From NCBI GenBank assembly GCA_964646435.1, contig CAZYEJ010000007.1, positions 1 to 57,630 on the forward strand: DNA of 57,630 nt, in the 5' to 3' direction. This DNA is from an uncultured Thermodesulfobacteriaceae bacterium (GTDB lineage Bacteria; Desulfobacterota; Dissulfuribacteria; Dissulfuribacterales; UBA3076). The position numbers were made by a program, and so were the translations under genes. Positions 2,162 to 28,502 of this stretch are shown here, in pieces; within the stretch, counting starts at the first letter, position 1; the number at the start of each line of letters is the position of its first letter. The notes beneath the pieces were generated by a model. That model did no database searches. It saw only the letters and a program-made list of their open reading frames with translations, and was not told the origin of the DNA.

Positions 2162-2177
2162 AGCAAGCGATGTGCCA
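2162..2177 (-). promoter_or_regulatory. sigma54 (-24/-12) promoter of the CBS gene
   Basis: Minus strand TGGCACATCGCTTGCT, GG-N10-GC spacing. Confidence 0.8.
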
Positions 2178-2320: not shown

Positions 2321-2422
2321 CATCTGCTACTAATCTGAATTTAAAGAAAGCAGGCTAATTACTTTGTAAGGGCCTTGTATGGGCTTGGGCAATCGGCAGT
2401 TGGGCAACGAGAGAAGGCGAAG

Positions 2423-3490
2423 ATGATTTCTCATAAAATTGCGTTACACGGTCAAATCGAGCCGGATCTATTCCCGGAGTTTATCGTAGTAAGCGAGCAC
2501 ATGCGTTCGGTGATCAGGACCGTGCAACAGATTGCCAGATTTGACGCCAATGTTTTAATTTCCGGGGAGTCCGGAACTGGTAAGGAGCTTGTGGCCCGCA
2601 TCATTCATCAAAAAAGCGACCGGAGGGATAAACCTATTGTGCCGGTGAACTGCGGTACCCTTTCCGGTGAACTGTTTGAAAGTAAACTATTCGGCCATGA
2701 AAAGGGGGCCTTTACAGGTGCTGTTAGGCAAACCAAGGGGAGATTTGAGCAGGCCGATAACGGGACTCTCTTTTTAGATGAAGTCTCGGAGATTTCACCA
2801 TCTAATCAGGTAAACTTTCTGAGGGTACTGGAAGATGGCTGCTTCTGTCGAATCGGAGGAGAGATACCCATCAGGGTGAACGTTCGTATTGTTGCAGCGA
2901 CCAATAAGGATCTGACAACAGAAGTAAAGACAGGGCATTTTAGAAAGGATCTCTACTACCGCCTAAAGGTGATCCCCATTAACCTTTTTCCTTTAAGGAA
3001 ACGGAAGGAAGCAATTCCTCATTTGGTGAATAATTTCCTGGAAAGATTTGCCAAATTATATAAAAAATCCAGGGTATCCGTTTCCTCTGAGACTATGGAA
3101 TACTTGATATCGTATGATTGGCCGGGGAATATTAGACACCTTAAGAACATAATGGAAAGAATGTTTCTGATGGCCCAAGGACCGATAATCAATGTGAACG
3201 ATTTTCCAGAGGATATTATGGACGTAGTGTCCTTTGATCCTGGAGAGAATCCAGGGCAAGAGACCCACAATCAAAGCGCATCATCTTTCGATTTTGCAGC
3301 CTATGGTCCTATTGAACCATTGCGAAAGGCACGTCAACGGCTGGAGAAAACCATCATTCTGAGGGCCTTAGAGATGACGAAAGGACAGAGGGCCAGGGCC
3401 GCTGAACTTCTGGAGATTAAACCCCGCACCCTTCGCCAAAAGATGAGCGATTATGGTATTGAGTTCCGGAGGACGGGAAAAAGAGGATGA
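2423..3490 (+). CDS. sigma54-dependent enhancer-binding protein (AAA+ and Fis HTH) lacking an N-terminal regulatory domain
   Basis: Walker A GESGTGKE, GAFTGA, Walker B LFLDEV, FRKDLYYRL, WPGNIR, C-terminal HTH; ATG at 2423 has an RBS (track start 2375). Confidence 0.92.
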   Translation: MISHKIALHGQIEPDLFPEFIVVSEHMRSVIRTVQQIARFDANVLISGESGTGKELVARIIHQKSDRRDKPIVPVNCGTLSGELFESKLFGHEKGAFTGAVRQTKGRFEQADNGTLFLDEVSEISPSNQVNFLRVLEDGCFCRIGGEIPIRVNVRIVAATNKDLTTEVKTGHFRKDLYYRLKVIPINLFPLRKRKEAIPHLVNNFLERFAKLYKKSRVSVSSETMEYLISYDWPGNIRHLKNIMERMFLMAQGPIINVNDFPEDIMDVVSFDPGENPGQETHNQSASSFDFAAYGPIEPLRKARQRLEKTIILRALEMTKGQRARAAELLEIKPRTLRQKMSDYGIEFRRTGKRG

Positions 3491-5870: not shown

Positions 5871-5886
5871 TGGCACATCTATTGCT
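5871..5886 (+). promoter_or_regulatory. sigma54 (-24/-12) promoter of the mrp operon
   Basis: TGGCACATCTATTGCT, consensus GG-N10-GC. Confidence 0.85.
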
Positions 5887-14532: not shown

Positions 14533-16059
14533 TTAGTCTTCATGTGAGCGAGGCTCAGAAGGCAGCCTGATGACAAAGGTTGTTCCTTTCCCAAGTTCAG
14601 AGTCTACACTTATGGTTCCGCCGTGTTCTTTGACTATCTTCTGGGTAATCAGCAGGCCGAGGCCCGTACCTCTTGACCCCTTGGTGCTGAATAGCGAACT
14701 AAAGATTTGCTTTCTTACGGCCTCATCCATACCACAACCATTGTCAGAGACCTGAAGAATAAACGCTTTATCACTTTCGCGCTTTGTAGTCACCCGTACC
14801 AGGTGTTCCTTGCCCTCTTCTTCATCAAATATAGCGGCATCAATGGCATTGGAAACCAGGTTAAGCAGACAATGATGAATTCCTTTGGGGTCTAAAGATA
14901 CATCGCCTACAGTTGGATCAAGATCTCTAACAATCTCTACTCCGGATTCTTTTGCCTTGAGATCCATTAGCTTGCATACCTCTTCCGCAATTTTATTCGG
15001 GGAGCACTTTTCATATTCAGGCTCACGTTCCTTGGAGTAGTTGAGGAGATCCATAGCCAGGCCGGAGACCCTGTCAATATTCCTTCGCACCATGTCCCAG
15101 CCAATGCGAAGGCTATTCATATCCTCCTTCTTAAGTGCGTTGTCTACTATATAGACCCCTCCCTGCAGACCACCCAAGATGTTTTTGATACCGTGGGCAA
15201 GTCCGGCCGCAGTTTCTCCAGTGGCAGCCAATCTTTCGGATTTGATCAATTCCTGCTGTAACTGCTTGATTTCCCTCAGATCGTGGAGAAAACCCACACT
15301 GCCAATAACCTCACCATCTTGATACAGAACAATTCCCGAAAATTTAACCGGTATCTTGTCACCGTCTTTTCCCAAAACGAAGGTCTCTCGCCAAACATGC
15401 ATTTCTTGTCTTTCTCGTTCTTTGCCATGCAGACCTTGCATGATTTCTTCGGCTGTCTCTGGTGGATAGAGACTCCTTATATCAATCTTCCCTATTACTT
15501 CATCCTTAGAATATCCAAATATTTTCTCATCCCCTCGATTAAAAATCATTATTTTTCCCTGCTTATCAGTGCCGACTATACCGTCGAGGGAACGCTGAAT
15601 CAGATTGTCTTCAAACTCATACCTCTGCCTTATCTCCTCTGTGGCTTGCTTAACCTTATCTTCCAGATTGTCGGTATATTCCTTGAGCATCCTCCTTAAA
15701 TGAAGCCTTTCCTTGGCCCGTTTTAGGGCAACTGTCAGGGCTTCGTCCACAATAGGCTTGGTGACAAAATCAGAGGCCTCAAGTTGCAGAGACTGGATAG
15801 CCACGTCCATATCGCCGTGCCCGGTAACCACTATCACCTCGGTTTCAGGACTTATTTCCTTAATCCTTTTCAATACCTCGATGCCATCCATGCCTGGCAT
15901 CTTTACATCAGTTAAGACAATTGGGGGATCTTCTTTCTCAAAAATCTCCAGGCCGCTTTTGCCATCCTCTGCGGTCAGCACCTCGTAGCCATCAGCTCTC
16001 AGCGACATTCCAACAATCTTCCTTGCCGGCTCTTCATCATCAATAAGTAAAAGCTTCAA
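14533..16059 (-). CDS. Hybrid histidine kinase REC-PAS-HisKA-HATPase
   Basis: LLIDDE...TDVKMPGMDG; PAS; AHGIKNIL; NLVSNA, DNGCG, GTGLGL. Confidence 0.92.
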   Translation of the reverse strand: MKLLLIDDEEPARKIVGMSLRADGYEVLTAEDGKSGLEIFEKEDPPIVLTDVKMPGMDGIEVLKRIKEISPETEVIVVTGHGDMDVAIQSLQLEASDFVTKPIVDEALTVALKRAKERLHLRRMLKEYTDNLEDKVKQATEEIRQRYEFEDNLIQRSLDGIVGTDKQGKIMIFNRGDEKIFGYSKDEVIGKIDIRSLYPPETAEEIMQGLHGKERERQEMHVWRETFVLGKDGDKIPVKFSGIVLYQDGEVIGSVGFLHDLREIKQLQQELIKSERLAATGETAAGLAHGIKNILGGLQGGVYIVDNALKKEDMNSLRIGWDMVRRNIDRVSGLAMDLLNYSKEREPEYEKCSPNKIAEEVCKLMDLKAKESGVEIVRDLDPTVGDVSLDPKGIHHCLLNLVSNAIDAAIFDEEEGKEHLVRVTTKRESDKAFILQVSDNGCGMDEAVRKQIFSSLFSTKGSRGTGLGLLITQKIVKEHGGTISVDSELGKGTTFVIRLPSEPRSHED

Positions 16060-16087
16060 TAGATTGCCCCTATTGTTAGAATATTAT

Positions 16088-17782
16088 TTAAGCGTCTGGA
16101 CATGGAAGAAATTTCAACAGAAATGTTGTACCAGTCCCTACCTCAGTCTTTACATCTACAGTTCCACCATAATCCTTGACAATTCCATAGCTGATGGACA
16201 GGCCTAATCCCGTTCCAATACCTACTTTTTTAGTGGTAAAGAATGGTTCAAATATCTTATCCAACACATGTTCGGGGATACCATTTCCTGTATCAGACAC
16301 AGAAATTGCGGCCCGTCCTCTGTCTGAAAATGACTTTATTGTCACTTTACCACCTGATTCGCCTTTTTCCTCAATGGCTTGCCGGGCATTTACAACCAGG
16401 TTCAAAAGGACTTGCTCCAACTTATTACTATCTGCCATTATATGGGGTAGGTTATCATCCAGGTCCAAATCTATCTCTATATCACGTACCTTGAACTGTT
16501 GTCCCAATATCCCAAAAATATTTCTGATAGGCACATTCACATCAAGCTCTGCTGTCTTGACACCAATCCTTGAAAAGTCCCGCATATGATTGATGATTGC
16601 CGATGCCCTATCTACCTGACCAACGATTTCTTCAGTCACAGTTTTTAATTCTTCATCCTCAATCTTTTGGCCCTTTTTGATCATCTTTGACAGAAACGTA
16701 GCGCCCATTCTAATAACACTTAACGGTTGATTTAACTCGTGGGCTACGCCTGATGCCATCTCACCCAAGGTGGACATCTTACTGGCCTGGACTAACTGGG
16801 TCCTTTTTTCTAATTTCCTTATCTCTCTTTCAGAAATATCCAGTTTAGAGACCATATGTTTAAAGGAATCTGCCAACTGGACCGTCTCGTCACCCACATG
16901 GGTTTTATACACTTTGCATTCACGACACTCATCCAGCTTTTCTGGAAAGCTTCCTGATGGCTGGCCAAAACAGAGTGTTCCGTCCATGTACCAGCACATT
17001 GTCGTAGTATTTCCATAAGCAGGGCAGTCAGTTTTTGTGCATTTTTCTATCTCCCAGCATTTGACCTCTCTGCCAAAATCAAGGTCTGTTTTCCCACGGC
17101 TGATTTCATCGGATAATCGCGTAAGTTTGGAGAGTGGCCTGGTAACGAATTTGGATAAGAAAATGAATAAGAAAACACCCACAATTACGACGGAAGCCAG
17201 GCCCCAGGCAATCTCTCTATTCCTGACTTCTGCTATTCGCTTCTCTACCGGACCCCAGCTAATTCCTACGGTTAAAATCCCCAATATTTCATTTTCCTTT
17301 CCATGGCATTTATAGCAGGTTTTCTCATTCGGGATAGGCATGGCATGGAGAAGTATCTTTTCTCCCTCCTGCACCTCCAGGACCTTTGCCAGGAAACCGG
17401 TGTCTAATGCCTCTTCAGTAGCATGTGAATCATCAAGCCTTTTTACATTGGCCGGTAATCCACTGTATTTGATAGTGCCTGTAAGATCGCAAAGATTTAC
17501 GACTCTCACATCCTTTAATTTATACAAGCTTTCCAGGATGGCCTGCGCGGCCTCCATGTCTCCGTCGAGCATGGGGTATTCAATACTTCTCATTACCGTG
17601 TCACTGATCTCATATGCCCGCTCCTCCTGCTTTCCAAAATGATACTTTATTCGCGTAACCATGTCATAGTAAGTAAGGATGCCAATTACTATGATTAAAA
17701 ACGCACTCATACCTATTATTACCTTTTCCGTGACACTGGTTATGTGGAGCCTTACCCATAATCTATCCAAAAGAGGTGTCAT
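16088..17782 (-). CDS. Membrane sensor kinase: periplasmic heme-c (CYKCH) domain, HAMP with inserted 7-Cys CW domain, HisKA-HATPase
   Basis: Two TM helices; CYKCH; CW...CPAY...CW...C..CxxC; AHELNQPL; DTGNG; GTGLGL. Confidence 0.9.
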   Translation of the reverse strand: MTPLLDRLWVRLHITSVTEKVIIGMSAFLIIVIGILTYYDMVTRIKYHFGKQEERAYEISDTVMRSIEYPMLDGDMEAAQAILESLYKLKDVRVVNLCDLTGTIKYSGLPANVKRLDDSHATEEALDTGFLAKVLEVQEGEKILLHAMPIPNEKTCYKCHGKENEILGILTVGISWGPVEKRIAEVRNREIAWGLASVVIVGVFLFIFLSKFVTRPLSKLTRLSDEISRGKTDLDFGREVKCWEIEKCTKTDCPAYGNTTTMCWYMDGTLCFGQPSGSFPEKLDECRECKVYKTHVGDETVQLADSFKHMVSKLDISEREIRKLEKRTQLVQASKMSTLGEMASGVAHELNQPLSVIRMGATFLSKMIKKGQKIEDEELKTVTEEIVGQVDRASAIINHMRDFSRIGVKTAELDVNVPIRNIFGILGQQFKVRDIEIDLDLDDNLPHIMADSNKLEQVLLNLVVNARQAIEEKGESGGKVTIKSFSDRGRAAISVSDTGNGIPEHVLDKIFEPFFTTKKVGIGTGLGLSISYGIVKDYGGTVDVKTEVGTGTTFLLKFLPCPDA

Positions 17783-17842
17783 TTTACCTGTTCCTCAGTC
17801 TCTCCTAAGCTCATACTAATGATGGCGTATAAGTGCGGTGGT

Positions 17843-18283
17843 TTAATACCCCGGATGCCTGTGCCCGCTGTGACAGCTTGTACATATATTCTTTGGAATG
17901 CTTAATGTCTTTTGATGTTCCAGCCTGGTCGGGGCCTTGAGATGTAAGCTGGCCGGACCATGGCAACTTTCACACTGTTTATTGACCATCCGCGGGGTTT
18001 TTTCCACGCTGACAAATCCTCCCGTTTTCCCAAAACCGGTCGTATGGCAAGGCAGACAGCCTGGGTCATGATCTTTTTTCCTCATCTGTATGACCCGAAA
18101 ATTTCTTGAGTATTTCCAGGAAAGATAGCTATCCACATGCTCTGGATGGCATTCTTTGCACTTGTCCATTCCAACATAGGTGGCCTTCTCTTTTTCAGCA
18201 CAAAGATATGGTGTGCTAAAAACAAAGAAATATAAAGCAAAAAGCCCGGTGGCCATGGTGATAGATAGTTTTTTCATTTTCAT
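17843..18283 (-). CDS. Periplasmic tetraheme cytochrome c (c554-like)
   Basis: Signal peptide, YVG, CKECH, CLPCHTTG, CESCHGP, CTSCH; AGGAG RBS before ATG 18283. Confidence 0.9.
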   Translation of the reverse strand: MKMKKLSITMATGLFALYFFVFSTPYLCAEKEKATYVGMDKCKECHPEHVDSYLSWKYSRNFRVIQMRKKDHDPGCLPCHTTGFGKTGGFVSVEKTPRMVNKQCESCHGPASLHLKAPTRLEHQKTLSIPKNICTSCHSGHRHPGY

Positions 18284-18430
18284 CTTCAAGCTCCTTTGAC
18301 CGGATTCCAAATCGAAAATCCGGAAAAATAGAATTTTATCCTAGCGCGAAGCATGATGGATAAAATAGTGTTGGACCGAGTAGTGACCTGCGTCCGTTTT
18401 GCGAACCCTATTAATATGATATTAATATAA

Positions 18431-18620
18431 TACTTGAGTTTTCGAAAAAGAGTTGAAGAACCAAGTAAGCAATTGGCACATTTATTGCTGTTAAACGTCC
18501 ACCACGTCATTCCCGCGAAGGCGAGAATCCAGTAACTGTTACCCAGACTTATTGAGAAGTTACCAAAAATCATTCCAAATCCTTGTTTTTCTGACCAACT
18601 ATTTTTCGAAAACTCAAGTA
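18431..18620. mobile_element. 190-bp composite MITE-like element with 25-bp TIRs (family B)
   Basis: TACTTGAGTTTTCGAAAAAGAGTTG / CAACTATTTTTCGAAAACTCAAGTA (24/25 match); contains a REP-like unit and one family C end. Confidence 0.75.
18474..18489 (+). promoter_or_regulatory. sigma54-type -24/-12 sequence inside the family B element
   Basis: TGGCACATTTATTGCT; 22/23 nt identical to 5871-5893 including the downstream GTTAAAC. Confidence 0.55.
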
Positions 18621-18854
18621 TAAAAATTATTATATAGAAACCCGATCATCCGATCAAGTATGATTAGAACAATGATATTGTTTCCTGGTGCCTAAAGATC
18701 AGGTTATTTGAAGCAGAACGAGCCGGTGAAGTAAAAACCTGCATTATTGCCATTTTGTCTTTCAAAACGCAGCATTCTGTGCTATGTATTCGTTTAGATG
18801 AAGACATAGGCTTACCTGAGGGCTTTCTCAATAATTATAGGAGTGAGGAAGGAA

Positions 18855-19289
18855 ATGGCTAAAAAGATACTTATCGTGGACGATGAGCCTGATATTATTA
18901 CCTTTATCAGTGCAGTTCTTGAAGAAAACGGTTATTCAAGCATAAGTGCCAGTGATGGGATCGAAGGGCTTGAACTCTTGCGCAAGGAGAAGCCTGATCT
19001 GGTTTTGCTCGACCTCATGATGCCCAAAAAAAGTGGCATTGCCATGTTCCAGGAGTTGAGAAAGGATCCAGACATGAGCGATACTCCTGTGATTGTGCAA
19101 ACCGGGGTCTCTGAGGTGACAGGGGTCGATTTTAGAAACTTCATGTTTAAACAACCGCTTCGTGATGAAAAGAAATTTGTCGAGAGCACGGGATTGACAA
19201 AATATACTATTCCAGACGGCTATATTGAAAAACCAATTGATCCCGTCGAGTTGATTGAAGCAGTTAAGAAAGCCTTAAAAGAAACATAG
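18855..19289 (+). CDS. Single-domain response regulator
   Basis: KKILIVDDE, LVLLDLMMP, YIEKP; about 20-aa insertion before the final strand. Confidence 0.9.
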   Translation: MAKKILIVDDEPDIITFISAVLEENGYSSISASDGIEGLELLRKEKPDLVLLDLMMPKKSGIAMFQELRKDPDMSDTPVIVQTGVSEVTGVDFRNFMFKQPLRDEKKFVESTGLTKYTIPDGYIEKPIDPVELIEAVKKALKET

Positions 19290-19369
19290 ATAAAGATTGT
19301 AAGGTAGCTCCCGTTGTAAAGGCAGTTGACCACCAAAAACAAGTCAGTCTTCACAATTCAGGTCCATCT

Positions 19370-19518
19370 ATAACTTCTCAATAGCTCAGGGTAAAATGTC
19401 TGGATTCCCGCCTTCGCGGGAATGACAGGCGCTCACACCCAATCGTCATTCCCGCGAAGGCGGGAATCCAGTGGATGAATTGCAAAATATGATTTGCCCG
19501 GACTTATTGAGAAGTTAC
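19370..19518. repeat. Family C inverted-repeat element carrying two REP/dRS3-like units
   Basis: TAACTTCTCAATA...TTATTGAGAAGTTAC ends; inverted pair CTGGATTCCCGCCTTCGCGGGAATGAC and GTCATTCCCGCGAAGGCGGGAATCCAG. Confidence 0.8.
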
Positions 19519-19547
19519 TACAAATCTACAAACGGGTTTCTTGAATA

Positions 19548-19584
19548 ATAGATTGAGACGACCTTAAAGGTCGTCTCAATCTAT
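19548..19584. terminator. Perfect 17-bp hairpin between convergent genes
   Basis: ATAGATTGAGACGACCT-TAA-AGGTCGTCTCAATCTAT, 8 bp past the cytochrome b stop. Confidence 0.65.
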
Positions 19585-19592
19585 ATTATTGA

Positions 19593-20231
19593 TTAGTGTT
19601 CTTCTACCTCTTCCTCCCAGCCGGTTATCATGGTTATGATATGAGCCCAGAAGGTATGGCCCAGGGTAGCCAGATACATGTGGACAAAGAGAAAGGCAGC
19701 GAAACAGCAGGCTACCAGGAAATGTAACCCGATCACTATTTTTACCCCGCCTAGAAACACCATCCATTTTTGCGTAATCAGCAGAAGCAACAGACCGGAC
19801 AACAGGATGATCGGTACAAGAGTCAGCATGATCATCAAATATGCCCCTTTCTGCATGGGGTTGAATTTGGCATCAGGCGTGGAGTGATGAGGGTTTGGTC
19901 CACCCTTGAAGTAGTTAAAGCCATAAAACACCATCTGTTTTATGATACCAGTCTTCAGGTCATACATGTTGGGGACATAGAGCTTTATCAGGCTCTTATC
20001 AATAAACACGTAATATACAAACCACAACAACCAATCGATGCATACAAAAATTCCGGTAAAATCATGAACCAGTACCGCTGCTCTATAGCTGCCAAATAGA
20101 TTAAAATACTCAGGAAACCTGATCTGAGCCCCTGTAATGCACAGAGTTGTTATTCCAATGGCATGAATCCAATGCCATATCCTCACTGTAAGAGGGTTGA
20201 GGTAGATCATTTTTGGCTTTTCCATGATCAA
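19593..20231 (-). CDS. Di-heme cytochrome b membrane subunit (Ni-hydrogenase cyt b family; CbcB-like)
   Basis: RIWHWIHA, VLVHD, KFNPMQK, GLHF, FVHMYLA, MITGW; four TM helices. Confidence 0.88.
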   Translation of the reverse strand: MIMEKPKMIYLNPLTVRIWHWIHAIGITTLCITGAQIRFPEYFNLFGSYRAAVLVHDFTGIFVCIDWLLWFVYYVFIDKSLIKLYVPNMYDLKTGIIKQMVFYGFNYFKGGPNPHHSTPDAKFNPMQKGAYLMIMLTLVPIILLSGLLLLLITQKWMVFLGGVKIVIGLHFLVACCFAAFLFVHMYLATLGHTFWAHIITMITGWEEEVEEH

Positions 20232-21421
20232 TGTTTCCTCCTATTTTTTTGAGTCAGAATTCTGAAAGTGCCATGGAGGCAGGCTGCGCCTAAACCACCG
20301 GCTATGATCAGCAGGCCCAAAATGCTGAGAATATCGTTTCTGGTGGAGCCCACCATGTAGAAGTCAGCAGTAGCAAAAAGAGGGTCGAGCACTGCTCCCT
20401 CTTCAACAGGGACCCTGCTGTACGTGCCATTTTGATTAGGGAAGGCTACATAACATGTCTGCATGGCTTTGGGTCCGGCAGCATGACAGAAAGAACAATC
20501 CCGGCGGTCTTCAAATATTCCATAACTGTGACTTGCTGTCTTTGTTGACAGCACCCCCCAAAGCCCTACACTCTTATATTTTGAGTTCAAATTAAACTCT
20601 TTGAGCTCTGCTGTTGTAATGGAGCCGTCACCATTACTATCTATGAGAGATTGAACTCCCTTGTCTCCGACTAATTGCGTGAGATCTTGGTAAGTTGCGA
20701 GGTCAATCTCACCTTCTTTATCTGGTTTGATATCCTTTCTTTTCTCGATATACATGGTGATGACAATGCCTTTTGAATCAGTATGGCAGCTTATGCACGT
20801 AGTTGCCTGCATATGGAGCTTGTTCCGGAGGAGCCATTCAGAGTGGCCGTCACCTTCATGACAAGTAAGACACTGTTTGTTTTTTTCAAAACCAGAGGTC
20901 TCCAGGTAGCTTATGACTGTATGAGGGCTGTGACAATCTGAGCAAGCCGCGTTTCCTGCATGGGGGCTATTCAAATACTCTTCAACGGCTTCTTCATGAC
21001 ACATACCACAACTTTCACCAGGAGACTTGAGCCCTTTGACCGCATGGGGATTGTGACAATCTATGCATTCCGCATTTCCAGCATGAAGGCCCTTTGATAC
21101 CTCATCAATAGTATCTTCATGGCACATGTCACAGCTTTCTTTAGAGGGCTTAACCCCGTCGTCCGGGTGGCTATCGGTTACTGAATGGCAGGACCCGCAA
21201 CCATCTTCTGCGTGTTTTGTGCCAGCGAACTGGGTGCCATCGATATATAGACGCACGTCCCCTTCATCAAAATTGGATGAATCGCCATGGCATTCCAGAC
21301 AGTCATCGGTTTCCATGGCACTCGACGAGTTGATGCCGATGCCTGCCACCCACATCATGAAACCGAAAATACAGATTATAAGAAACTTTGCTTTGAGCAC
21401 CATCCTTCCTCTCTTCCTCAC
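20228..21421 (-). CDS. Nonaheme cytochrome c with EF-hand-like loop and C-terminal TM anchor (CbcA-like)
   Basis: Nine CxxCH: CLECH, CGSCH, CDMCH, CIDCH, CGMCH, CSDCH, CLTCH, CISCH, CSFCH; DSNGDGSITTAE; C-terminal TM ending LHGTFR. Confidence 0.88.
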   Translation of the reverse strand: MRKRGRMVLKAKFLIICIFGFMMWVAGIGINSSSAMETDDCLECHGDSSNFDEGDVRLYIDGTQFAGTKHAEDGCGSCHSVTDSHPDDGVKPSKESCDMCHEDTIDEVSKGLHAGNAECIDCHNPHAVKGLKSPGESCGMCHEEAVEEYLNSPHAGNAACSDCHSPHTVISYLETSGFEKNKQCLTCHEGDGHSEWLLRNKLHMQATTCISCHTDSKGIVITMYIEKRKDIKPDKEGEIDLATYQDLTQLVGDKGVQSLIDSNGDGSITTAELKEFNLNSKYKSVGLWGVLSTKTASHSYGIFEDRRDCSFCHAAGPKAMQTCYVAFPNQNGTYSRVPVEEGAVLDPLFATADFYMVGSTRNDILSILGLLIIAGGLGAACLHGTFRILTQKNRRKH

Positions 21422-21592
21422 CTATAGAACTTAGAAGTTCATGTGCGAGCATACTCTAATGTCCCTTGCTGAAACAGAAATTTCACACAGGACTTGAAAT
21501 AGCTATGCACCCACGATAAGGGCGCAGATCCCAAGAAAAGTTCAGATATAGACACCGCTTTTGTCATTTCTGATATTATAGATCACAGGAAC

Positions 21593-21752
21593 TAAGAAAC
21601 GTACAATAAATAACTTGAACAAATTAACGTCTTTTTTGCCGTCTTCTTCGTTGCTCGTCGATCACATAACCCGTTATGCTCGCTCCTTGCGCCTTGAATA
21701 CAACAAAAAATCCTGTTAATTTTTGTTCAACTTATTTCTCTCCCGTTCCTAA
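21593..21752. mobile_element. About 160-bp MITE-like element, family D
   Basis: Imperfect TIRs TAAGAAACG..AAATAACTTGAACAAA / TTTGTTCAACTTATTT..CGTTCCTAA; second copy starts at 57576. Confidence 0.8.
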
Positions 21753-22142
21753 AAAAGCGGTAGTTAAAAAGAAAACCAATGCAAGAATTATTTTTTTGTG
21801 TTCTTTTAATGGCACGCCCCTCCTTCCCATTTTGCTGTTTATTTTAAAACGATTCTCATATTACACCCATGTGAAATTATAGTATTGTTATTCTAAAACT
21901 ACTTTGTAACCTGCTTGGAAGAAATTGGCAATATCAGTCTGACCACCCAGGCAAATCTTTTTTGTTTTTTTATAGAGCATGAGATCAAATCATAAGGGAA
22001 ATTCACCATAATCTCAATCGATTCTGTCTTATGTCCGAAGCATATTCCTATGCTTGACAAGGCTAAATGGCGTTGCTACTACCTATGTTGAGCGATTAAC
22101 TGTTAGCCATTTGATTAGAGATACCATTAAGATTGGGGCACA

Positions 22143-22616
22143 ATGAGATACTTCCTCGCCGTTTTCATGGCAATATCAACGATCATTATCTTTAATCCGG
22201 GAAAGGTTAGGGGTGGGAATAACACTGAAATACAAAAATATGTCGGTTCGGAAGCCTGTAAGCCCTGTCACCAAAAGGAATATGGGAGTTTCACCAAATA
22301 TGCAAAGAAGAGCAGTTCGTTCGAGAGCATTCAAAGGGTGAAAAAGGGCCTTACCGGGGAAGAAATCAAAAAGTGTTATTTTTGCCATACAACAGGATTT
22401 GGCAAGCCGAACGGCTTTGTCAGTCTTGAAGAGACCCCTTACTTGAAAAACGCGGGCTGTGAAGTATGCCATGGCCCTGGTGAAATACATGTCAGGACGA
22501 AGCGCGCTCAGGATATCAAGGGGGATCTCACAACGAAAGATTGTGAGGAGTGTCACATATCAGAGAGGGTTAAGGCCTTCAGGTACAAGCCTTTGATTCA
22601 CGGAGGTGCACATTAG
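22143..22616 (+). CDS. Periplasmic tetraheme cytochrome c (c554-like)
   Basis: Signal peptide, YVGSEA, CKPCH, CYFCHTTG, CEVCHGPG, CEECH. Confidence 0.9.
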   Translation: MRYFLAVFMAISTIIIFNPGKVRGGNNTEIQKYVGSEACKPCHQKEYGSFTKYAKKSSSFESIQRVKKGLTGEEIKKCYFCHTTGFGKPNGFVSLEETPYLKNAGCEVCHGPGEIHVRTKRAQDIKGDLTTKDCEECHISERVKAFRYKPLIHGGAH

Positions 22617-22650
22617 CGACTCCGATAGGCACCGCATTGTTGAGGACAGG

Positions 22651-25344
22651 ATGTTTGGTTTTATAAGAAAAAGTTTTGCAAACAAGATAATGGCTACTGT
22701 AATAATCAGCATAGCCCTGGTTATGACGGCTGAGATTGTCTTGAGAATATACTTTGGGACAAGAGACAGGATGGAGTTGGTGAAAGCTCATAATTTTGAT
22801 GTGTCTGAATCGATCTATTCCGGCATAACATATCCAATGCATGTTGGAGATAGTGTGGCCGTCAAGGAGGTCTTGTCCGATGTCCGTAAGAAAATGGAAG
22901 ACATCGAGGCATGGGTGTGCGATTTTGATCAAGAGATAACCTGGTCCACACACGAGGAAAGGGTAAAGACCATGGTTGCGGATTCTATTTCCGATGAGGA
23001 GGCACTGGCAGCCTTAACCAAGACGTTGAGTTCAGGAGTAGCACCGGAGAAGGCATTTGTAGCAGAACTTGTCGGAAGAAAGCTCCTTATTACCATCCAG
23101 CCCATCCTGAACTATAAAGACTGCCATCACTGCCATGGCGCTTCAAGGAAAGTTCTCGGTGGCCTGATAATAGGAACGGATGTTGAGCATACTTATGAAA
23201 TGGTCGCTGCTGCCATGAACAGGACCATATTGATAAGTTTTATTGGAATATCAATAATTATAGCCATAATTTATATGATGATTACCAGATTCATTAGGCG
23301 CCCTGTGGAGGATCTGGCTGACAAGGCAAAGAGATTTGCAGAGGGCGGTACGTCTGTTTCAGTAGACGTAAGGTCAGAGGATGAAATAGGTGTACTGGGC
23401 AACGCATTTAACTATATGGTTCAAAGGGCATCTCAATTCAGCAAAAGACTTGAGAGTGAGGTTGCCAGAAAAACCGACCTGTTAGGCGAAAGGACCAATC
23501 TTATAGCACTATTGGAAAAAGCAAATATCCAACTTAGGGAACTTGACAAACTAAAATCCATGTTCTTGGCAAACATGTCTCATGAGCTAAGGACACCAAT
23601 GAATTCTATTATCGGATATTCTGATTTACTAATAGATGGGGTTGATGGACCAATCAACGAAGAACAGGAAAAGAGCCTGGGCAGAATTTCTAATAATGCC
23701 AGGCACCTTCTACAATTGTTAAATGATCTTCTCGATCTCTCCAAGATAGAAGCAGGAAAAACCGAGTTAGAAGCAGAACAATTCAATCTAAAAGGACTCA
23801 TTGATTCAGTAATTTCCATGTTTGAGGGAATGATAACCCAAAAGGGTCTTTCCCTTGATTTTGATATCGATGAGGATCTGCCTTTAGTCTATGGCGATAA
23901 GAATAAGATCAAGCATGTTTTGATGAACCTGCTGTCCAATGCGACCAAATTTACCGATGAGGGAGGCATAACCATCCGTGCCAGGATATCCGATCGCGGC
24001 ATTCATCAACGTGGCGAGCCTCCTATATTTGCAGAGGTCTGTGTAGAGGATACAGGTATTGGGATAAATGATGAGGACCTTAGTAAGATTTTTGATAAGT
24101 TCGTGCAGGCTGACCTTTCTACTGTCCGCCAATATGAAGGGACCGGCCTGGGGCTCAGTATTGCGAGGGGGTTGATTGCATTGCACAACGGTATGATCTG
24201 GGCCACGAGCAAGTATGGCAAGGGAAGCCAATTCTATTTCACTATTCCTCTCAGAAAAGAGGTAGTCGAAACTATAACTAAGCCGATCATAGAATTACGA
24301 GTGGCTGATGACTTGGCTGAGCACTTCGGGGTGCCTGTCGAGACCTTTTTGAAGGACCCCGAATATGGCGGCAAACCGTTAAGGTGCCACGAATACATAC
24401 ATTGCGGACAGTCTGACTGTCCGGCCTATGAGAGTGAAGAAAGACGTTGCTGGCTCGTTCTTGGGACACATTGCGCAGGAATGAAAATCGGTGTCTATCC
24501 GGAGAAAGTTGATTTTTGCAAAGATTGTAAGGTCATACAGAAACTGGTGCTTGAGTCACAGGAGTCAAAAACCGTTGAGGCAAAGCCGTTGACTGTAGAG
24601 GACATTTCTCGAAAGACGGTCCTGGCAATAGATGACAATCCGGACGCCATTGATATCATCAGGAAATCCCTGGGAGAGGACTACAAAATAGTAGGTCTTC
24701 TCAGCGGGGAGAAGGCAGTTGAAAAGGCCATAGAGACGAGACCAGTAGCCATTACTCTGGATATCATGATGCCGAAAAAAGATGGATGGCAGGTGTTGCG
24801 GGAGCTGAAAAGTACGCCAGAGACCCAAAATATCCCGGTAATTGTCCTTTCAATTGTGGATAATAAAAAACTGGGATTCAGTCTGGGTGCCGCGGAATAT
24901 ATGGTAAAGCCGCTAGATAAGAATTTTTTGCTCAGAAAAATAAGAGATCTGGAAAAAATGGGCAAAATACAACGGGCACTTGTAGTAGATAGTGAAACAG
25001 ATACAGTATCGCTGATCGAACATACCTTGCAAGACGTTGGGTGTCAGGTAAAGACAGCCTATAACAGCCAGGATGCGATCGAGTTGATAAAGGGTTTCAT
25101 GCCTAACCTGATTATCCTCAATCTGACAATGCCCAAGGTGAATGGTTTTGATGTAATTGAGTACATTAAAACAGATAAAAATGTCAAGAAGGTCCCCCTT
25201 ATTATTATTACGAAAAGGGACTTGAGCAAAAAGGAGAAAGACGCTCTGGACGGCAGGTTACGTGGCATATTAAACAAGGATGCACTCAAAGAAGATCTCT
25301 TACAAGAGCTCAAGCATAGAATTGATGAGATAAAAAGTGCCTGA
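22651..25344 (+). CDS. Hybrid sensor kinase: periplasmic heme-c (CHHCH), HAMP, HisKA, HATPase, 7-Cys CW domain, REC, pseudo-REC
   Basis: Two TMs; CHHCH; FLANMSHELRTP; GTGLGL; CPAY...CW; ITLDIMMP; second REC reads LIILNL; start re-called at ATG 22651 (GAGG RBS). Confidence 0.92.
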   Translation: MFGFIRKSFANKIMATVIISIALVMTAEIVLRIYFGTRDRMELVKAHNFDVSESIYSGITYPMHVGDSVAVKEVLSDVRKKMEDIEAWVCDFDQEITWSTHEERVKTMVADSISDEEALAALTKTLSSGVAPEKAFVAELVGRKLLITIQPILNYKDCHHCHGASRKVLGGLIIGTDVEHTYEMVAAAMNRTILISFIGISIIIAIIYMMITRFIRRPVEDLADKAKRFAEGGTSVSVDVRSEDEIGVLGNAFNYMVQRASQFSKRLESEVARKTDLLGERTNLIALLEKANIQLRELDKLKSMFLANMSHELRTPMNSIIGYSDLLIDGVDGPINEEQEKSLGRISNNARHLLQLLNDLLDLSKIEAGKTELEAEQFNLKGLIDSVISMFEGMITQKGLSLDFDIDEDLPLVYGDKNKIKHVLMNLLSNATKFTDEGGITIRARISDRGIHQRGEPPIFAEVCVEDTGIGINDEDLSKIFDKFVQADLSTVRQYEGTGLGLSIARGLIALHNGMIWATSKYGKGSQFYFTIPLRKEVVETITKPIIELRVADDLAEHFGVPVETFLKDPEYGGKPLRCHEYIHCGQSDCPAYESEERRCWLVLGTHCAGMKIGVYPEKVDFCKDCKVIQKLVLESQESKTVEAKPLTVEDISRKTVLAIDDNPDAIDIIRKSLGEDYKIVGLLSGEKAVEKAIETRPVAITLDIMMPKKDGWQVLRELKSTPETQNIPVIVLSIVDNKKLGFSLGAAEYMVKPLDKNFLLRKIRDLEKMGKIQRALVVDSETDTVSLIEHTLQDVGCQVKTAYNSQDAIELIKGFMPNLIILNLTMPKVNGFDVIEYIKTDKNVKKVPLIIITKRDLSKKEKDALDGRLRGILNKDALKEDLLQELKHRIDEIKSA

Positions 25345-25360
25345 TAAACTAGGAGATGAC

Positions 25361-25756
25361 ATGAAAGAAACAGAGAAGGTTTCCGGGACAAAATTGCTGA
25401 TAGTTGAGGATAACCAGGATAGCCGGGAACTGGTAATCAAGGTCTTAAGAAACCGGGATTATCAGCTAATTGAAGCTGTTGATGGAAAAGATGGCCTGGA
25501 AAAGGCGATTGCAGAACAGCCGGATATTATTCTTTTGGATATCTCGCTTCCGAAAATGGGAGGTTATGAGGTTGCGAAAACCCTGAGGCTTCGAGAGGAG
25601 TTTAAGCATACCTCGATAATTGCATTGACCGCACATGCAATGAAAGGGGATGAGGAAAAGGCTTTGCAGGCGGGATTCAGTGGATATATATCAAAGCCGA
25701 TAAATGTCCGCGAGTTGCCGGAGCAGATAGAATACTACGTGAAAAAAACAAGATAG
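25361..25756 (+). CDS. Single-domain response regulator (DivK-like)
   Basis: LLIVEDN, ILLDISLP, IIALTAHAMKGDEEKAL, YISKP; AGGAG RBS. Confidence 0.9.
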   Translation: MKETEKVSGTKLLIVEDNQDSRELVIKVLRNRDYQLIEAVDGKDGLEKAIAEQPDIILLDISLPKMGGYEVAKTLRLREEFKHTSIIALTAHAMKGDEEKALQAGFSGYISKPINVRELPEQIEYYVKKTR

Positions 25757-25765
25757 GTTATTCGG

Positions 25766-26833
25766 GTGGACAAAAATAAAATCCTGATCGTTGAGGATAA
25801 CGTAGATACCGTAGACCTCTTGAGAAAGAGGCTCCGTGCTGACGGGTATGATACCGCTGAGGCATACGACGGCCAAGAAGGCCTCGACAGATTCGCTGAA
25901 TACGAGCCGGATTTGGTTGTGCTGGACATTATGATGCCTAAAATGGATGGGCTTGAGGTATGCAAAAGACTCAAGGAAGATAAAAACACCCGACACATAC
26001 CTGTCATCATCCTCACTGCCAAGGGCGACGTTGACAGCACTGTCAAAGGTCTTGATATCGGCGGGGATGATTATCTGGCGAAACCCTTTGATTATAAAGA
26101 GCTTGTTGCAAGAATACGATCATTGCTCAGCATAAAAGAAGAACGTAAGAAGTTGATGGAGGCGGAGAAGACAGAAGCATTAGAAAAGATGATGGATCAA
26201 GTAGCGCATGAGATAAGGAACCCTCTTGTTGCTATAGGAGGATTTGCGCGAAGGATCTGTGACTCCCTTTCTGAGAGTGATCCAAACAGAAAATATCTGG
26301 AATTAATTGTACAAAATGTTGAGACTCTGGAACATATGATAAAAAAGCTCATTGAGCTGAAGACCACTGTAATATCTTATAGAGAGCCAGCGGATATTAA
26401 TAAAATTATTGCCAAATCGATTGAAAAATACAGATCTGCACTTGAAGAAAAACACATAGATATCAAAACCGAATTAATGAAGAATCTTCCTGATATTTCT
26501 GTTGATAGAGAACAGATTGAGGCAGCGTTTGCCCATCTTATTAAAAACGCAATTGAAGCAATGCGAAACACGACGCGCAGGCTAAATATCAGCAGCCGTG
26601 TCAGCGAGGGATATATCGAGATCAGGATATCCGATACAGGGGTCGGTATCCCAAAAGACAAACTCAAAAATGTTCTGGACCCTTTTTTTACTTCAAAGAT
26701 CCACGCCGGACTCGGCCTTACTTATGCACTCAAAATTATTCAGGCCCACAGGGGCACGATCTCAGTGGAAAGCGAACCAGGCAAGGGATCTACCTTTACA
26801 ATTAGATTGCCTGTGAAAAGAAGTGGTAAATGA
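25766..26833 (+). CDS. REC-HisKA-HATPase hybrid kinase
   Basis: ILIVEDN, LDIMMP; AHEIRNPL; DTGVG, PFFTSK, GLGL. Confidence 0.9.
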   Translation: MDKNKILIVEDNVDTVDLLRKRLRADGYDTAEAYDGQEGLDRFAEYEPDLVVLDIMMPKMDGLEVCKRLKEDKNTRHIPVIILTAKGDVDSTVKGLDIGGDDYLAKPFDYKELVARIRSLLSIKEERKKLMEAEKTEALEKMMDQVAHEIRNPLVAIGGFARRICDSLSESDPNRKYLELIVQNVETLEHMIKKLIELKTTVISYREPADINKIIAKSIEKYRSALEEKHIDIKTELMKNLPDISVDREQIEAAFAHLIKNAIEAMRNTTRRLNISSRVSEGYIEIRISDTGVGIPKDKLKNVLDPFFTSKIHAGLGLTYALKIIQAHRGTISVESEPGKGSTFTIRLPVKRSGK

Positions 26834-26988: not shown

Positions 26989-28413
26989 ATGAAGGATGTC
27001 CATGCTTTATTGAAAAACCAGCTCGGGCAGTATTTCGGTAGCCTGAAGTCCATTCCCAAAGAGTGGCAAGGTTTTATTGAAGCGGTCAACAATGCTTATT
27101 GGCAATCTGAAGTTGACCATACAGAGCGAAAGCAGGCAAAGCAGGAAATACAGAATCTCCAGCGCTACAACCGCGGATTAATTGAGACAAGCCTTGATCC
27201 TCTGGTAACTTTTGATCAGAAGGGGATTATTCTGGATGTTAACGGGGCCACAATTCGAGCTACTGGGAGAAGTCGGGAGGAATTAATCGGGACCCCATTT
27301 GCTGATTATTTCACAGATTCGGAGAAGGCTTATAAGGGGGCGATGTTGGTTTTTGAGACCGGTGAGGTTCGGGATTACGAGCTGGTCATGAGGGCCAAAG
27401 ATGGAACAGAGACCATTGTTGCCTACAATGCCTCGCTTTATAGAGATCAGACCGGACAGGTAATGGGTGCCTTTGCCGCTGCCCGTGATATCACTAGCCT
27501 GAAACGTTCTGAGGCGGAAGTACGACGGGAAAGAGATAGAGTGAAAGAAAGTATGCTGAAAAAAATCAGCTTGTTAAACGAGAGGGCAAAACTAATAGCG
27601 CAATTAGGAGAAGCAAATATCCAACTTAGAGAACTTGACAGGCTTAAATCAGCATTTTTGGCGAATATATCTCATGAACTTAGGACACCGATGAATTCTA
27701 TTATCGGATACTCAGATTTGTTATTAGACGGAGTTGACGGAGTAATCAACGAGGAACAGGAAAAGAGTCTAGGCAAAATCACCGATAATGCAAAACACCT
27801 TTTACAATTGATAAATAATCTTCTCGATCTTTCCAAGATAGAATCAGGGAAAATTGAGATAGAAGCAGTTCAGTTCAACCTCAAAGGACTTATTGATTCA
27901 GTAGTTTCCTTTTTTAAGGGGATGATAACCAAAAAAGGGCTAACTCTTGATTTTGATATTGAAAAGAATCTGCCTTTGGTCTGTGGCGATGAGGATAAGA
28001 TCAAGCATGTTTTAATAAATCTGTTAAACAATGCGATCAAGTTTACCCATGAGGGAGGTATAACCATTAGTGCCAAGATATCCGATCGCGGTATTCAGCC
28101 TGGCGAGTCGCCCATATTTGCAGGGGTCTGTGTAGAGGATACAGGCATCGGGATTAAGGATGAAGATCTTGATAAAATTTTTGACAAGTTCATTCAGGCT
28201 GACATATCTGCTTCGCGCCGATATGAAGGGACCGGCCTTGGGCTCAGTATTGCGAGAGGGCTGATCGCATTGCACAATGGTATGATCTGGGCCACGAGTG
28301 AGTATGGCAAGGGAAGTCAATTCTATTTCACTATTCCGCTAAAAAAAGAGACGCTGAAGAATCCGGATAAGCCGGTCATGGAATTAGGAATTGCGCATCC
28401 CCACATAGGATAA
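26989..28413 (+). CDS. PAS histidine kinase, paralogous to the 22651 kinase core and possibly 3'-truncated
   Basis: PAS (LIETSLDPLVT...), FLANISHELRTP, GTGLGL; stop lies 3 bp from the tRNA CCA end. Confidence 0.85.
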   Translation: MKDVHALLKNQLGQYFGSLKSIPKEWQGFIEAVNNAYWQSEVDHTERKQAKQEIQNLQRYNRGLIETSLDPLVTFDQKGIILDVNGATIRATGRSREELIGTPFADYFTDSEKAYKGAMLVFETGEVRDYELVMRAKDGTETIVAYNASLYRDQTGQVMGAFAAARDITSLKRSEAEVRRERDRVKESMLKKISLLNERAKLIAQLGEANIQLRELDRLKSAFLANISHELRTPMNSIIGYSDLLLDGVDGVINEEQEKSLGKITDNAKHLLQLINNLLDLSKIESGKIEIEAVQFNLKGLIDSVVSFFKGMITKKGLTLDFDIEKNLPLVCGDEDKIKHVLINLLNNAIKFTHEGGITISAKISDRGIQPGESPIFAGVCVEDTGIGIKDEDLDKIFDKFIQADISASRRYEGTGLGLSIARGLIALHNGMIWATSEYGKGSQFYFTIPLKKETLKNPDKPVMELGIAHPHIG

Positions 28414-28416
28414 ATA

Positions 28417-28502
28417 TGGTGCCGAAGGGGGGATTCGAACCCCCATGGGTTTTGCCCACCACCCCCTCAAGATGGCGTGTCTACCTATTCCACCACTTCG
28501 GC
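28417..28502 (-). tRNA. tRNA-Leu(GAG)
   Basis: GCCGAAGTGGTGGAATAGGTAGACACG CCATC-TTGAGGG-GGTGG, long variable arm, GGTTCGAATCC, CTTCGGCACCA; usual position after secG. Confidence 0.95.

Follow-up and report, generated by a model that had tools for sequence, protein, structure and literature searches.

A 57,630-nucleotide contig from a methane-seep sulfate reducer of the Seep-SRB2 genus encodes two signalling modules. Each begins with the gene for a small secreted tetrahaem cytochrome (C1 or C2), followed by the gene for a membrane-bound sensor kinase (K1 or K2) whose periplasmic domain carries a single haem-c motif. The contig, one of 78 in a 2.0-Mb genome, was analysed whole and is called the window here. 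Across genomes, cytochrome genes of this type stand just before a receptor gene of this kind, whether the receptor is a kinase or a chemoreceptor, and the two partners have diversified together. The preferred reading, at a probability of roughly 55%, is that each module is a signalling cassette built on a cytochrome-partnered haem sensor, in which the cytochrome sets the redox state of the sensor haem.

The original prediction, made from the sequence alone, had placed two such modules facing outward around a CbcBA-like cytochrome bc pair. An open reading frame (ORF) listing, motif counts, hydropathy, and Pfam and NCBIfam profiles bear out the position of every gene. In each module, a secreted cytochrome with four CxxCH motifs precedes a kinase with two transmembrane (TM) segments and one periplasmic CxxCH, and relay genes come next; between the modules lie a cytochrome c with nine CxxCH motifs, a cytochrome b, and a lone receiver (Table 1). 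The modules are paralogous pair by pair: C1 and C2 share 39% identity, the sensor domains S1 and S2 30%, and the cysteine-rich domains CW1 and CW2 42%. The 2.0-Mb genome holds only two copies of each of these three elements. C2 of the closest named relative (SeepSRB2 contig) is 91% identical.

Pairing of cytochrome and receptor

Relatives of C2 are numerous, forming 1191 clusters at E up to 1e-5. At least 554 C2-type loci were found in species-representative genomes, mostly metagenome-assembled genomes of Desulfobacterota-type and Nitrospirota/Thermodesulfovibrionales lineages by their records. The ORFs of the best 80 of these loci were searched with profiles derived from the window; the sensor profile started from the window's own domains and was refined by iteration over the fetched loci. 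Of 86 cytochrome ORFs, 75 are followed immediately, on the same strand, by a CxxCH sensor ORF, with -16 to +294 bp between the two. Another five are paired once over-long ORF starts are relaxed, and four run off the contig. Two are real exceptions: those of L055 and of L058, where the kinase is 5.6 kb away. (L numbers denote fetched loci; G numbers, sampled genomes.)

These 80 loci are near-orthologues of one another, so 150 other genomes, sampled evenly across the phylum, were also used. The cytochrome profile matches strongly 27 times among them (E up to 1.7e-42), with 20 genomes represented; next comes a match at 8e-28, and weaker ones lie mostly inside proteins of 400-500 residues. Just downstream of 19 of the 27 is a match to PF21563, the haem-c sensor family. 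The remaining eight are followed by a gene joining the sensor to a methyl-accepting chemotaxis protein (MCP), recognised with the window-derived profile, and all 27 are thus paired. Two of these pairs look broken, yet are still adjacent. The neighbourhood survey proposed in the original prediction is therefore strongly positive.

In one of the broken pairs (G120; L178, G120:C21) the cytochrome gene is interrupted by an in-frame TGA, either selenocysteine or a break; in the other (G164; L174, G164:C1) the receptor is split into several ORFs.

The pair persists when the output of the receptor changes, among kinases, hybrid kinases, and chemoreceptors, with or without the cysteine-rich two-CW domain. 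Among 100 pairs, the architectures are sensor-kinase-twoCW-REC-REC (55), sensor-twoCW-kinase (10), sensor-MCP (10), sensor-kinase-twoCW (9), sensor-kinase (7), and sensor-twoCW-MCP (2), the last 7 being others or cut by contig ends. A third paralogue in sister Seep-SRB2 species is a cytochrome followed by a sensor-HAMP-MCP chemoreceptor; two other families of the order have a cytochrome with a sensor-twoCW-MCP receptor; and some pairs lie inside apparent chemotaxis operons.

Cytochrome and sensor have also co-diversified: C2-type cytochromes go with CxHCH sensors, and C1-type with CxKCH sensors. Trees (a quick method applied to short alignments of 131-168 columns) separate sensor clade A (CxHCH, support 98), with 58 of 60 rows paired, from clade B (CxKCH, support 96), with five of eight. 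The cytochrome partners of B and of A form separate sister clades (support 87 and 95), neither of which includes the unpaired c554-like proteins. The more distantly related c554-like genes of sister species (L093-L098) stand unpaired too. Five genomes with an unpaired clade-B sensor were checked, and all five have a C1-type cytochrome beside another sensor; the three unpaired clade-B tree rows come from three of them. Adjacent genes share their history anyway, so co-diversification establishes that the two are inherited together but says nothing of contact. What argues for a periplasmic partnership is that the pair survives exchanges of output, together with the 27 of 27.

The sensor domain is already known; the cytochrome partner is the new part. 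No description of such a partner was found in the literature on haem-c sensors or on c554 and kinases, subscription journals and supplements being beyond reach. The available text of the preprint that renames PF21563 as sCache_haem makes no mention of gene neighbours, operons, multihaem cytochromes, or c554 (bioRxiv 10.64898/2026.02.01.703092).

The haem-c sensor domain

The hydrophobic segments of K1 span residues 14-45 and 189-218, with its single CYKCH at residue 156 between them; those of K2 span residues 23-51 and 199-231, with CHHCH at residue 173. (TM segments come from a simple Kyte-Doolittle hydropathy scan, not a topology predictor.) PF21563 scores 33.7 bits in K1 and 31.0 in K2, and 37.2 and 37.9 in the isolated domains, above its gathering cut-off of 27. 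The phmmer program matches the periplasmic domains to the solved structures 3b42 and 3b47 with CxxCH aligned, one match (K1 against 3b47) having E 0.002. The K2 domain was modelled with AlphaFold2 (AF2) from 64 homologues (pLDDT 91.5); the model places the CxxCH on a helix (120-126) between two strands (107-117 and 132-141). This is the arrangement described for sCache_haem, a single CxxCH on a short helix between two strands (bioRxiv 10.64898/2026.02.01.703092). The top Foldseek match of the model is 3b42_B (E 3.3e-8), and sCache domains of WalK/YycG follow at TM 0.6-0.67. Because the family, structure, and fold matches all agree with CxxCH aligned, 'haem-c sensor kinase' is a sound reading by homology, and a known kind of sensor. 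The kinase CxxCH, which the original prediction took for a haem site, is by the same homology a probable one.

Structures 3b47 and 3b42 are those of GSU0582 and GSU0935. K1 and K2 share several features with these proteins. Two TM helices flank the periplasmic domain, which has a PAS/Cache-like fold and one CxxCH; its N-terminal helical region contains a conserved methionine; and one cell holds two paralogues. In GSU0582 and GSU0935, an axial methionine binds the reduced haem and leaves on oxidation; the midpoints are -156 and -251 mV, and the two receptors have been proposed to cover two potential ranges (PMC8396549). The 'PM' motif methionine of the present family is conserved in at least 90% of the sensors counted (88 of clade A and 12 of clade B), in a stretch that aligns with the 'ELMMAGDM' region of 3b47; its match to the published axial methionine is putative.

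There are differences as well. GSU0582 and GSU0935 are chemoreceptors, whereas the outputs of K1 and K2 are histidine kinases. Furthermore, K1 and K2 add a cytoplasmic two-CW domain and a preceding gene for a c554-like tetrahaem cytochrome, and the sequences are only about 20-24% identical. In the sample, L107 and L108, the best two of the Geobacter-like PF21563 loci, have no such cytochrome.

A proposed model for cytochrome-partnered sensing

These features suggest the following model. The receptor would sense through its periplasmic sCache/PAS-like domain with one covalent haem c, in the manner of GSU0582 and GSU0935, and the c554-like cytochrome encoded upstream would work with that domain in the periplasm. 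Most likely, the cytochrome serves as a dedicated redox partner: in equilibrium with the pool of periplasmic cytochromes, it would fix the oxidation state of the receptor haem, presumably through physical interaction and electron transfer, whose direction is likewise presumed. The receptor would then signal how the electron-transfer chain is poised, and a multi-kinase phosphorelay would take the signal up: from K1 to HK0 and the lone receiver; and from K2 to its own receiver, RR2, and HK3, with HK4 acting on the receivers that K2 also serves. A second input may come through the cytoplasmic two-CW domain. In Seep-SRB2, two anciently diverged cassettes have come to flank cbcBA, where they may serve to keep the respiratory chain in step with the supply of electrons.

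Sensor kinases with accessory proteins are familiar. In the TorT-TorS system, an accessory periplasmic protein acts with the sensor kinase. LuxP of LuxP-LuxQ and the haem-binding HbpS of HbpS-SenS (Streptomyces reticuli) are further examples (PMC8396549). The likeness is one of working principle only: a secreted, adjacently encoded protein serves as kinase input. Sequence and fold are unrelated; here partner and receptor both appear to carry covalent haem c, and the same type of partner also serves chemoreceptors.

Complex prediction with the K2 sensor domain (64-row alignment) and mature C2 (residues 27-157), run with no haems and no controls, gave 0.03 and 0.15 against a mark of 0.32, values that bear on binding in neither direction.

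Relay genes and their outputs

The C2-type cassette has four genes, encoding cytochrome, kinase, stand-alone receiver, and a receiver-containing (REC) kinase, in most of the 80 loci. Often there is a fifth, for a kinase whose core resembles that of K2; in the window this is HK4. The dimerisation and catalytic (DHp/CA) cores of HK4 and K2 share 74% identity across 299 residues. HK4 looks like a recent duplicate and probably addresses the same receivers as K2. Nitrospirota cassettes contain a comparable extra kinase between K2 and RR2.

The K1-type cassettes of other genomes help to place the genes around C1. The cassette of G110 reads [REC-x-sigma54-HTH]-C1-K1-HK0-RR (HTH, helix-turn-helix; RR, receiver), and those of G158 and G095 have the same order without the cytochrome. 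In G074 and G169 the order is C1-K1-(REC-kinase)-(REC-sigma54-HTH), with a REC-Lon protease nearby. Full-length homologues of HK0 (59-62% identity) directly follow the K1-type kinases of G110, G158, and G095, and the receiver of HK0 is 65% identical to that of the sigma54 activator in the G158 cassette. Over 95% of its length the lone receiver matches the receiver that closes the G110 cassette at 45% identity; against the corresponding receivers of G158 and G095 the figure is 37-38%. These homologies indicate that the lone receiver belongs to the K1 module, an assignment absent from the original prediction. Together with the neighbours of K1-type kinases, they also suggest that the ancestral output of this module was probably a sigma54 activator.

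REC-AAA-Lon fusions adjoin K1-type cassettes in two genomes (L167, 10649-12688, minus strand; L170, 16594-18591, plus strand). Such neighbours suggest a possible proteolytic output of the relay.

As the original prediction had noted, neither module includes a DNA-binding output. Pfam and NCBIfam searches detect no DNA-binding domain between positions 14533 and 28413, and the nearest such regulator is the receiver-less sigma54 activator at 2375-3490. About 11 sigma54 activators are encoded in the genome, none of them an evident orthologue of the cassette type.

Beyond the cassette, other phyla have ParA/MinD-like, thymidylate-synthase-like, CBS, ABC transporter, PanB, and RecR genes. These were rejected as conserved targets and are read as lineage synteny, not function.

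The CbcBA pair and its possible control

The bc pair has the published CbcBA architecture, and the orthology of its b subunit to Geobacter CbcB is putative. In Geobacter, CbcB is a PF01292 protein annotated as 'thiosulfate reductase cytochrome b'-like, a terminator follows cbcB, and CbcA of G. sulfurreducens has seven haems and a C-terminal anchor (Joshi et al., bioRxiv 10.1101/2021.04.15.440034). Likewise, the window encodes an anchored multihaem cytochrome c followed by a PF01292 cytochrome b, with a terminator-like hairpin after cbcB and signalling genes alongside; the hydrophobic segment of the cbcA product spans residues 362-386, with a histidine just after it. Murali et al. give the name CbcBA to such a Seep-SRB2 pair (PMC10553843), in accord with the original prediction. 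Nine CxxCH motifs stand against the seven of G. sulfurreducens. The regulatory genes also differ: the divergent receiver-sigma54 gene of the BccR type is missing (none occurs in the 14-28 kb part of the window), and two cassettes of cytochrome and haem kinase are found instead.

A wider alternative holds that each module reads the periplasmic pool in a potential window of its own and that, in Seep-SRB2, the two so regulate the expression of cbcBA. Several observations favour it. The bracket K1-C1/RR/cbcBA/C2-K2 is kept in five of eight genus loci (L011, L013, L018, L019, and L022), the other three being cut short before C1-K1, and about 450 nt of the region between cbcA and C2 are highly conserved. 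The sensor clades differ at the haem motif and the cytochrome clades in conserved histidines; the two-window model for GSU0582 and GSU0935 (PMC8396549) offers an analogy only. G. sulfurreducens cbcBA is induced only at low potential, via BccR, a receiver-sigma54-HTH protein (bioRxiv 10.1101/2021.04.15.440034), and the K1-type cassettes of G110, G158, G095, G074, and G169 stand beside regulators of this very type. Murali et al. propose CbcBA as the horizontally acquired quinone-cytochrome link of Seep-SRB2, report its high expression in consortia for the anaerobic oxidation of methane (AOM), and group its CbcB with Desulfuromonadales (PMC10553843).

Against this, among the 80 loci, cbcBA-like genes adjoin the cassettes only in the eight Seep-SRB2-type loci and, weakly, in L088. 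The bracket that the original prediction saw around CbcBA is thus real here, but its functional link to the modules is weakened: the bracket is genus-specific, whereas the cassettes themselves are old and widely distributed. The modules have no receiver-sigma54 regulator beside them. No sigma54 -24/-12 site precedes cbcA in any of the eight genus loci, and the only perfect site in the region, at 18474, lies in a strain-specific insert. Reading in two windows with control of cbcBA is, taken whole, doubtful; control of cbcBA by the modules is itself a guess, albeit a plausible one, that draws on adjacency in one genus. The available text of Joshi et al. contains neither 'histidine kinase' nor 'sensor' (bioRxiv 10.1101/2021.04.15.440034), and a term search of that of Murali et al. 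found no mention of kinases or sensors at the CbcBA locus (PMC10553843).

The promoter searches deserve brief comment. With up to two mismatches allowed, the sigma54 scan gives 26 matches in the window where 30.6 are expected, no excess. Three of the genome's five perfect TGGCAC-N5-TTGCW sites lie in the window, where about 0.06 would be expected: at 2162-2177 (minus strand), 5871-5886 (plus), and 18474-18489 (plus), upstream of a CBS-domain gene, an Mrp/Mnh-like antiporter operon, and the lone receiver, respectively. The last was rejected as a conserved promoter of the lone receiver, since it lies in an insert of about 215 bp that is absent from five sister loci. Scans for sigma70 promoters and terminators are no different from shuffles (31 against 27.8, and 18 against 13.9), and Rfam gives only chance-level matches in 18250-22200 (E 0.26-0.92, far below gathering scores). 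The non-coding stretch 21750-22142, between cbcA and C2, is about as conserved in the genus as the flanking genes and is a candidate regulatory region or leader.

Cold-seep RNA libraries yield contigs of relatives, at 93-99% identity, that cover cbcBA and parts of C1, K1, HK0, K2, and HK3; this is weak evidence and not proof of transcription. These are Logan contigs, each run holding 5-13% of the sampled words, so that uncovered stretches such as C2 are uninformative.

The locus also contains repeat insertions. Dispersed-repeat insertions surround the lone receiver (18410-18640 and 19390-19530; the repeat core has 30 and 61 genome BLAST hits). An inverted-repeat insert of 158 bp (21591-21749) sits in the control region and is absent there from six of seven sister loci, L019 holding a copy at another position. 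It has 26 genome BLAST hits, and one copy starts at the contig end (57576-57630). Contigs of two RNA runs skip this insert (21590/1-21749/50).

The tetrahaem cytochromes

C1 has one N-terminal hydrophobic segment and the motifs CKECH, CLPCH, CESCH, and CTSCH; C2 also has four CxxCH. Both match PF13435, at 48.8 and 68.6 bits respectively (cut-off 20.8). C2 aligns with cytochrome c554 of Nitrosomonas europaea (1bvb; E 1.9e-6), residues 34-114 corresponding to 6-96 of c554 and including three haem motifs. The common features are four CxxCH, the PF13435 match, and a CH-x-x-GFG signature (1bvb/1ft5). C1 and C2 are shorter (155-157 residues against 211), C2 has a conserved C-terminal motif of its own, AFRYKPLIHGGAH, and the genomic partner is a sensor, not hydroxylamine oxidoreductase. 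Identity with Nitrosomonas CycA (NF043010) was rejected: the scores of 38 and 37 bits, against a cut-off of 400, leave a fold-family relation only.

The c554-like tetrahaem module also occurs fused to redoxin/AhpC-type domains in proteins of 620-640 residues (P0125-P0128), and it resembles the C-terminal domain of a 'UshA-like (seleno)protein' (NF041198, E 1e-21). The c554 alignment and the redoxin/AhpC fusions support a probable role of the module in electron transfer.

Beyond the four CxxCH histidines, clade-A cytochromes keep H116 and H157 at 90% or more, and H153 less strictly, with no conserved methionine; clade-B cytochromes have five extra conserved histidines and two methionines. From this disparity, the two types probably differ in haem ligation, which could underlie different potential ranges.

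The pattern in clade A also admits another role for the cytochrome. In the chief rival account it would be a ligand-binding co-receptor, in which an open or weakly ligated haem binds NO, CO, sulfide, or O2 and the cytochrome, loaded or unloaded, docks on the receptor in the manner of LuxP on LuxQ or TorT on TorS. In the alignment with N. europaea c554, the second CxxCH falls on the second haem motif, whose haem in c554 is five-coordinate. The sensor domains homologous to those here, of the GSU0582/GSU0935 type, bind NO and CO (PMC3460858). Yet the extra residues of clade B suffice for six-coordinate haems, and its cytochromes are paired alike; the receptor already has a haem of its own for gas binding; and haem ligation is unreadable from sequence alone. 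A ligand-binding co-receptor is therefore unlikely, and redox partnership is the preferred account of the pair.

Weighing the partnership

Several observations weigh against the redox-partner reading. The confinement of cbcBA adjacency to one genus plus L088 and the missing sigma54 site before cbcA, described above, are two of them. For a pure wire, the two or three non-motif histidines that clade A offers its four haems are ambiguous, as they fit a ligand-accessible haem equally. The reverse pairing fails: in the 150-genome sample, 19 of 49 PF21563 matches have a cytochrome and 30 do not, so the sensor domain can work alone. Among the best Geobacter-like PF21563 matches, nine of 29 sampled loci are paired, and the best chemoreceptor matches are without a cytochrome. 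No fusion of cytochrome and receptor was found among nine longer homologues, itself weak evidence. In other phyla the cassettes lie among housekeeping genes, which reveal no conserved target. Finally, recognition of the sensor is uneven: Pfam confirms PF21563 in six of the seven other receptors submitted, and the two-CW MCPs of G027 and G028 are recognised by the window-derived profile only.

The plainest alternative, an ordinary periplasmic carrier that shares an operon with the receptor and has no part in sensing, draws on the abundance of small multihaem carriers in these organisms and on the conjectural nature of the cytochrome-receptor interaction, and is nonetheless very unlikely, because the cytochrome gene lies upstream of the receptor, not downstream, and is tightly spaced or overlapping; because it is kept beside chemoreceptors, which do not regulate transcription; and because a receptor is present in all 27 sampled cases and co-diversifies by clade.

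Two-CW domain and pseudo-receiver

Two features of the kinases were absent from the original prediction. First, both contain a cytoplasmic two-CW domain (NF045718) with seven cysteines, scoring 43.7 bits in K1 and 31.3 in K2, the latter below the cut-off of 35. The spacing of the cysteines is identical in the two (6, 5, 10, 8, 15, 3), and the CP and CW motifs are present; C8, C14, C19, P20, C29, and W30 are invariant in 28 two-CW sequences. Of 151 genomes of the phylum, 54 encode the domain, and it often makes up an ORF of its own (80-180 residues), whereas here it is inserted into kinases, at two different positions. A full-text literature search for 'two-CW domain' returned no paper. An AF2 model from the 28 sequences has a mean pLDDT of 52.6, too low to be of use; a look-up of the segment in the ESM Atlas found only unnamed small proteins (0.87-0.89, below the lead level of 0.9); and a word-limited search with the region found 45 proteins, nearly all K1 orthologues.

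Second, the second receiver of K2 (residues ~790-905) has asparagine at the phospho-acceptor position. Of 55 K2 orthologues, 48 have N, K, S, or Q at this position, none has D, and 7 are unscored, whereas the first receiver has D in 53 of 55. The second receiver is therefore a conserved pseudo-receiver.

Gene map

Genes were called as longest ORFs. C1 may start with TTG at 18310 or ATG at 18283, and a gap of 60 bp separates it from K1; K2 may start with GTG at 22606 or ATG at 22651. A tRNA-Leu(GAG) gene (28417-28502, minus strand) lies directly after HK4.

Table 1. Features of the window, with positions counted from its first nucleotide.
Feature	Position	Strand	Description
Sigma54 activator	2375..3490	+	AAA+ and HTH_8, without receiver; nearest DNA-binding regulator
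HK0	14533..16059	-	REC-PAS-HisKA-like-HATPase relay kinase; Pfam REC, PAS, HATPase_c; directly follows K1
K1	16088..17782	-	2-TM sensor kinase: PF21563 domain, weak HAMP, two-CW, HisKA-HATPase
K1 two-CW domain	16883-17080	-	7-Cys, cytoplasmic, between HAMP and HisKA
K1 sensor domain	17219-17647	-	haem-c sCache/PF21563 by homology, CYKCH
C1	17843..18310	-	secreted c554-like tetrahaem cytochrome, clade B, partner of CxKCH sensors
Lone receiver	18843..19289	+	REC only; Pfam REC; NCBIfam DVU0259/DivK-like below cut-off
Hairpin	19548..19584	.	17-bp stem between convergent receiver gene and cbcB; terminator-like
CbcB-like	19593..20231	-	dihaem cytochrome b, PF01292 (E 1.8e-20), 'thiosulfate reductase cytochrome b'-like
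CbcA-like	20228..21421	-	periplasmic cytochrome c, 9 CxxCH, C-terminal TM anchor; 4-base overlap with cbcB start
cbcA/C2 divergent control region	21422..22142	.	~450 nt highly conserved in genus (alignment, 8 loci)
C2	22143..22616	+	secreted c554-like tetrahaem cytochrome, clade A, partner of CxHCH sensors
K2	22606..25344	+	2-TM hybrid kinase: PF21563 domain, HAMP, HisKA, HATPase, two-CW, REC, pseudo-REC
K2 sensor domain	22759-23199	+	haem-c sCache/PF21563 by homology, CHHCH
K2 two-CW domain	24358-24555	+	after ATPase domain
RR2	25337..25756	+	stand-alone receiver; third gene of conserved four-gene cassette
HK3	25766..26833	+	REC-HisKA-HATPase; fourth gene of conserved cassette
HK4	26989..28413	+	cytoplasmic PAS kinase; present in some genus members only

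Implications

How electroactive and syntrophic anaerobes sense the redox state of the periplasm, or of an external partner, is largely open, and work on haem-c sensors has so far dealt with the domains in isolation. The pairing of cytochrome and receptor is a good candidate for how anaerobes read their periplasmic redox state. A cytochrome encoded before one large branch of these sensors provides a concrete two-protein system to express, titrate, and reconstitute, and the pair is present in cultured strains, for example Desulfoferrobacter suflitae DRH4 (L087).

In Seep-SRB2, the pair sits at the one respiratory complex proposed to take up electrons from anaerobic methanotrophic archaea (ANME) (PMC10553843). 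This position makes it a natural candidate for how the bacterium follows the activity of its methane-oxidising partner. A broader conception joins these elements: a general, hitherto unrecognised 'redox antenna' of anaerobes, with a tetrahaem wire to the sensor haem, whose copies in Seep-SRB2 would read ANME electrons at two potentials and set the level of CbcBA through a phosphorelay onto a sigma54-type activator. As a whole it is improbable. Were it true, it would also hint at what sort of sensor lies upstream of BccR-type regulators in Geobacter, and CbcBA would be the entry point of ANME-derived electrons into the quinone pool.

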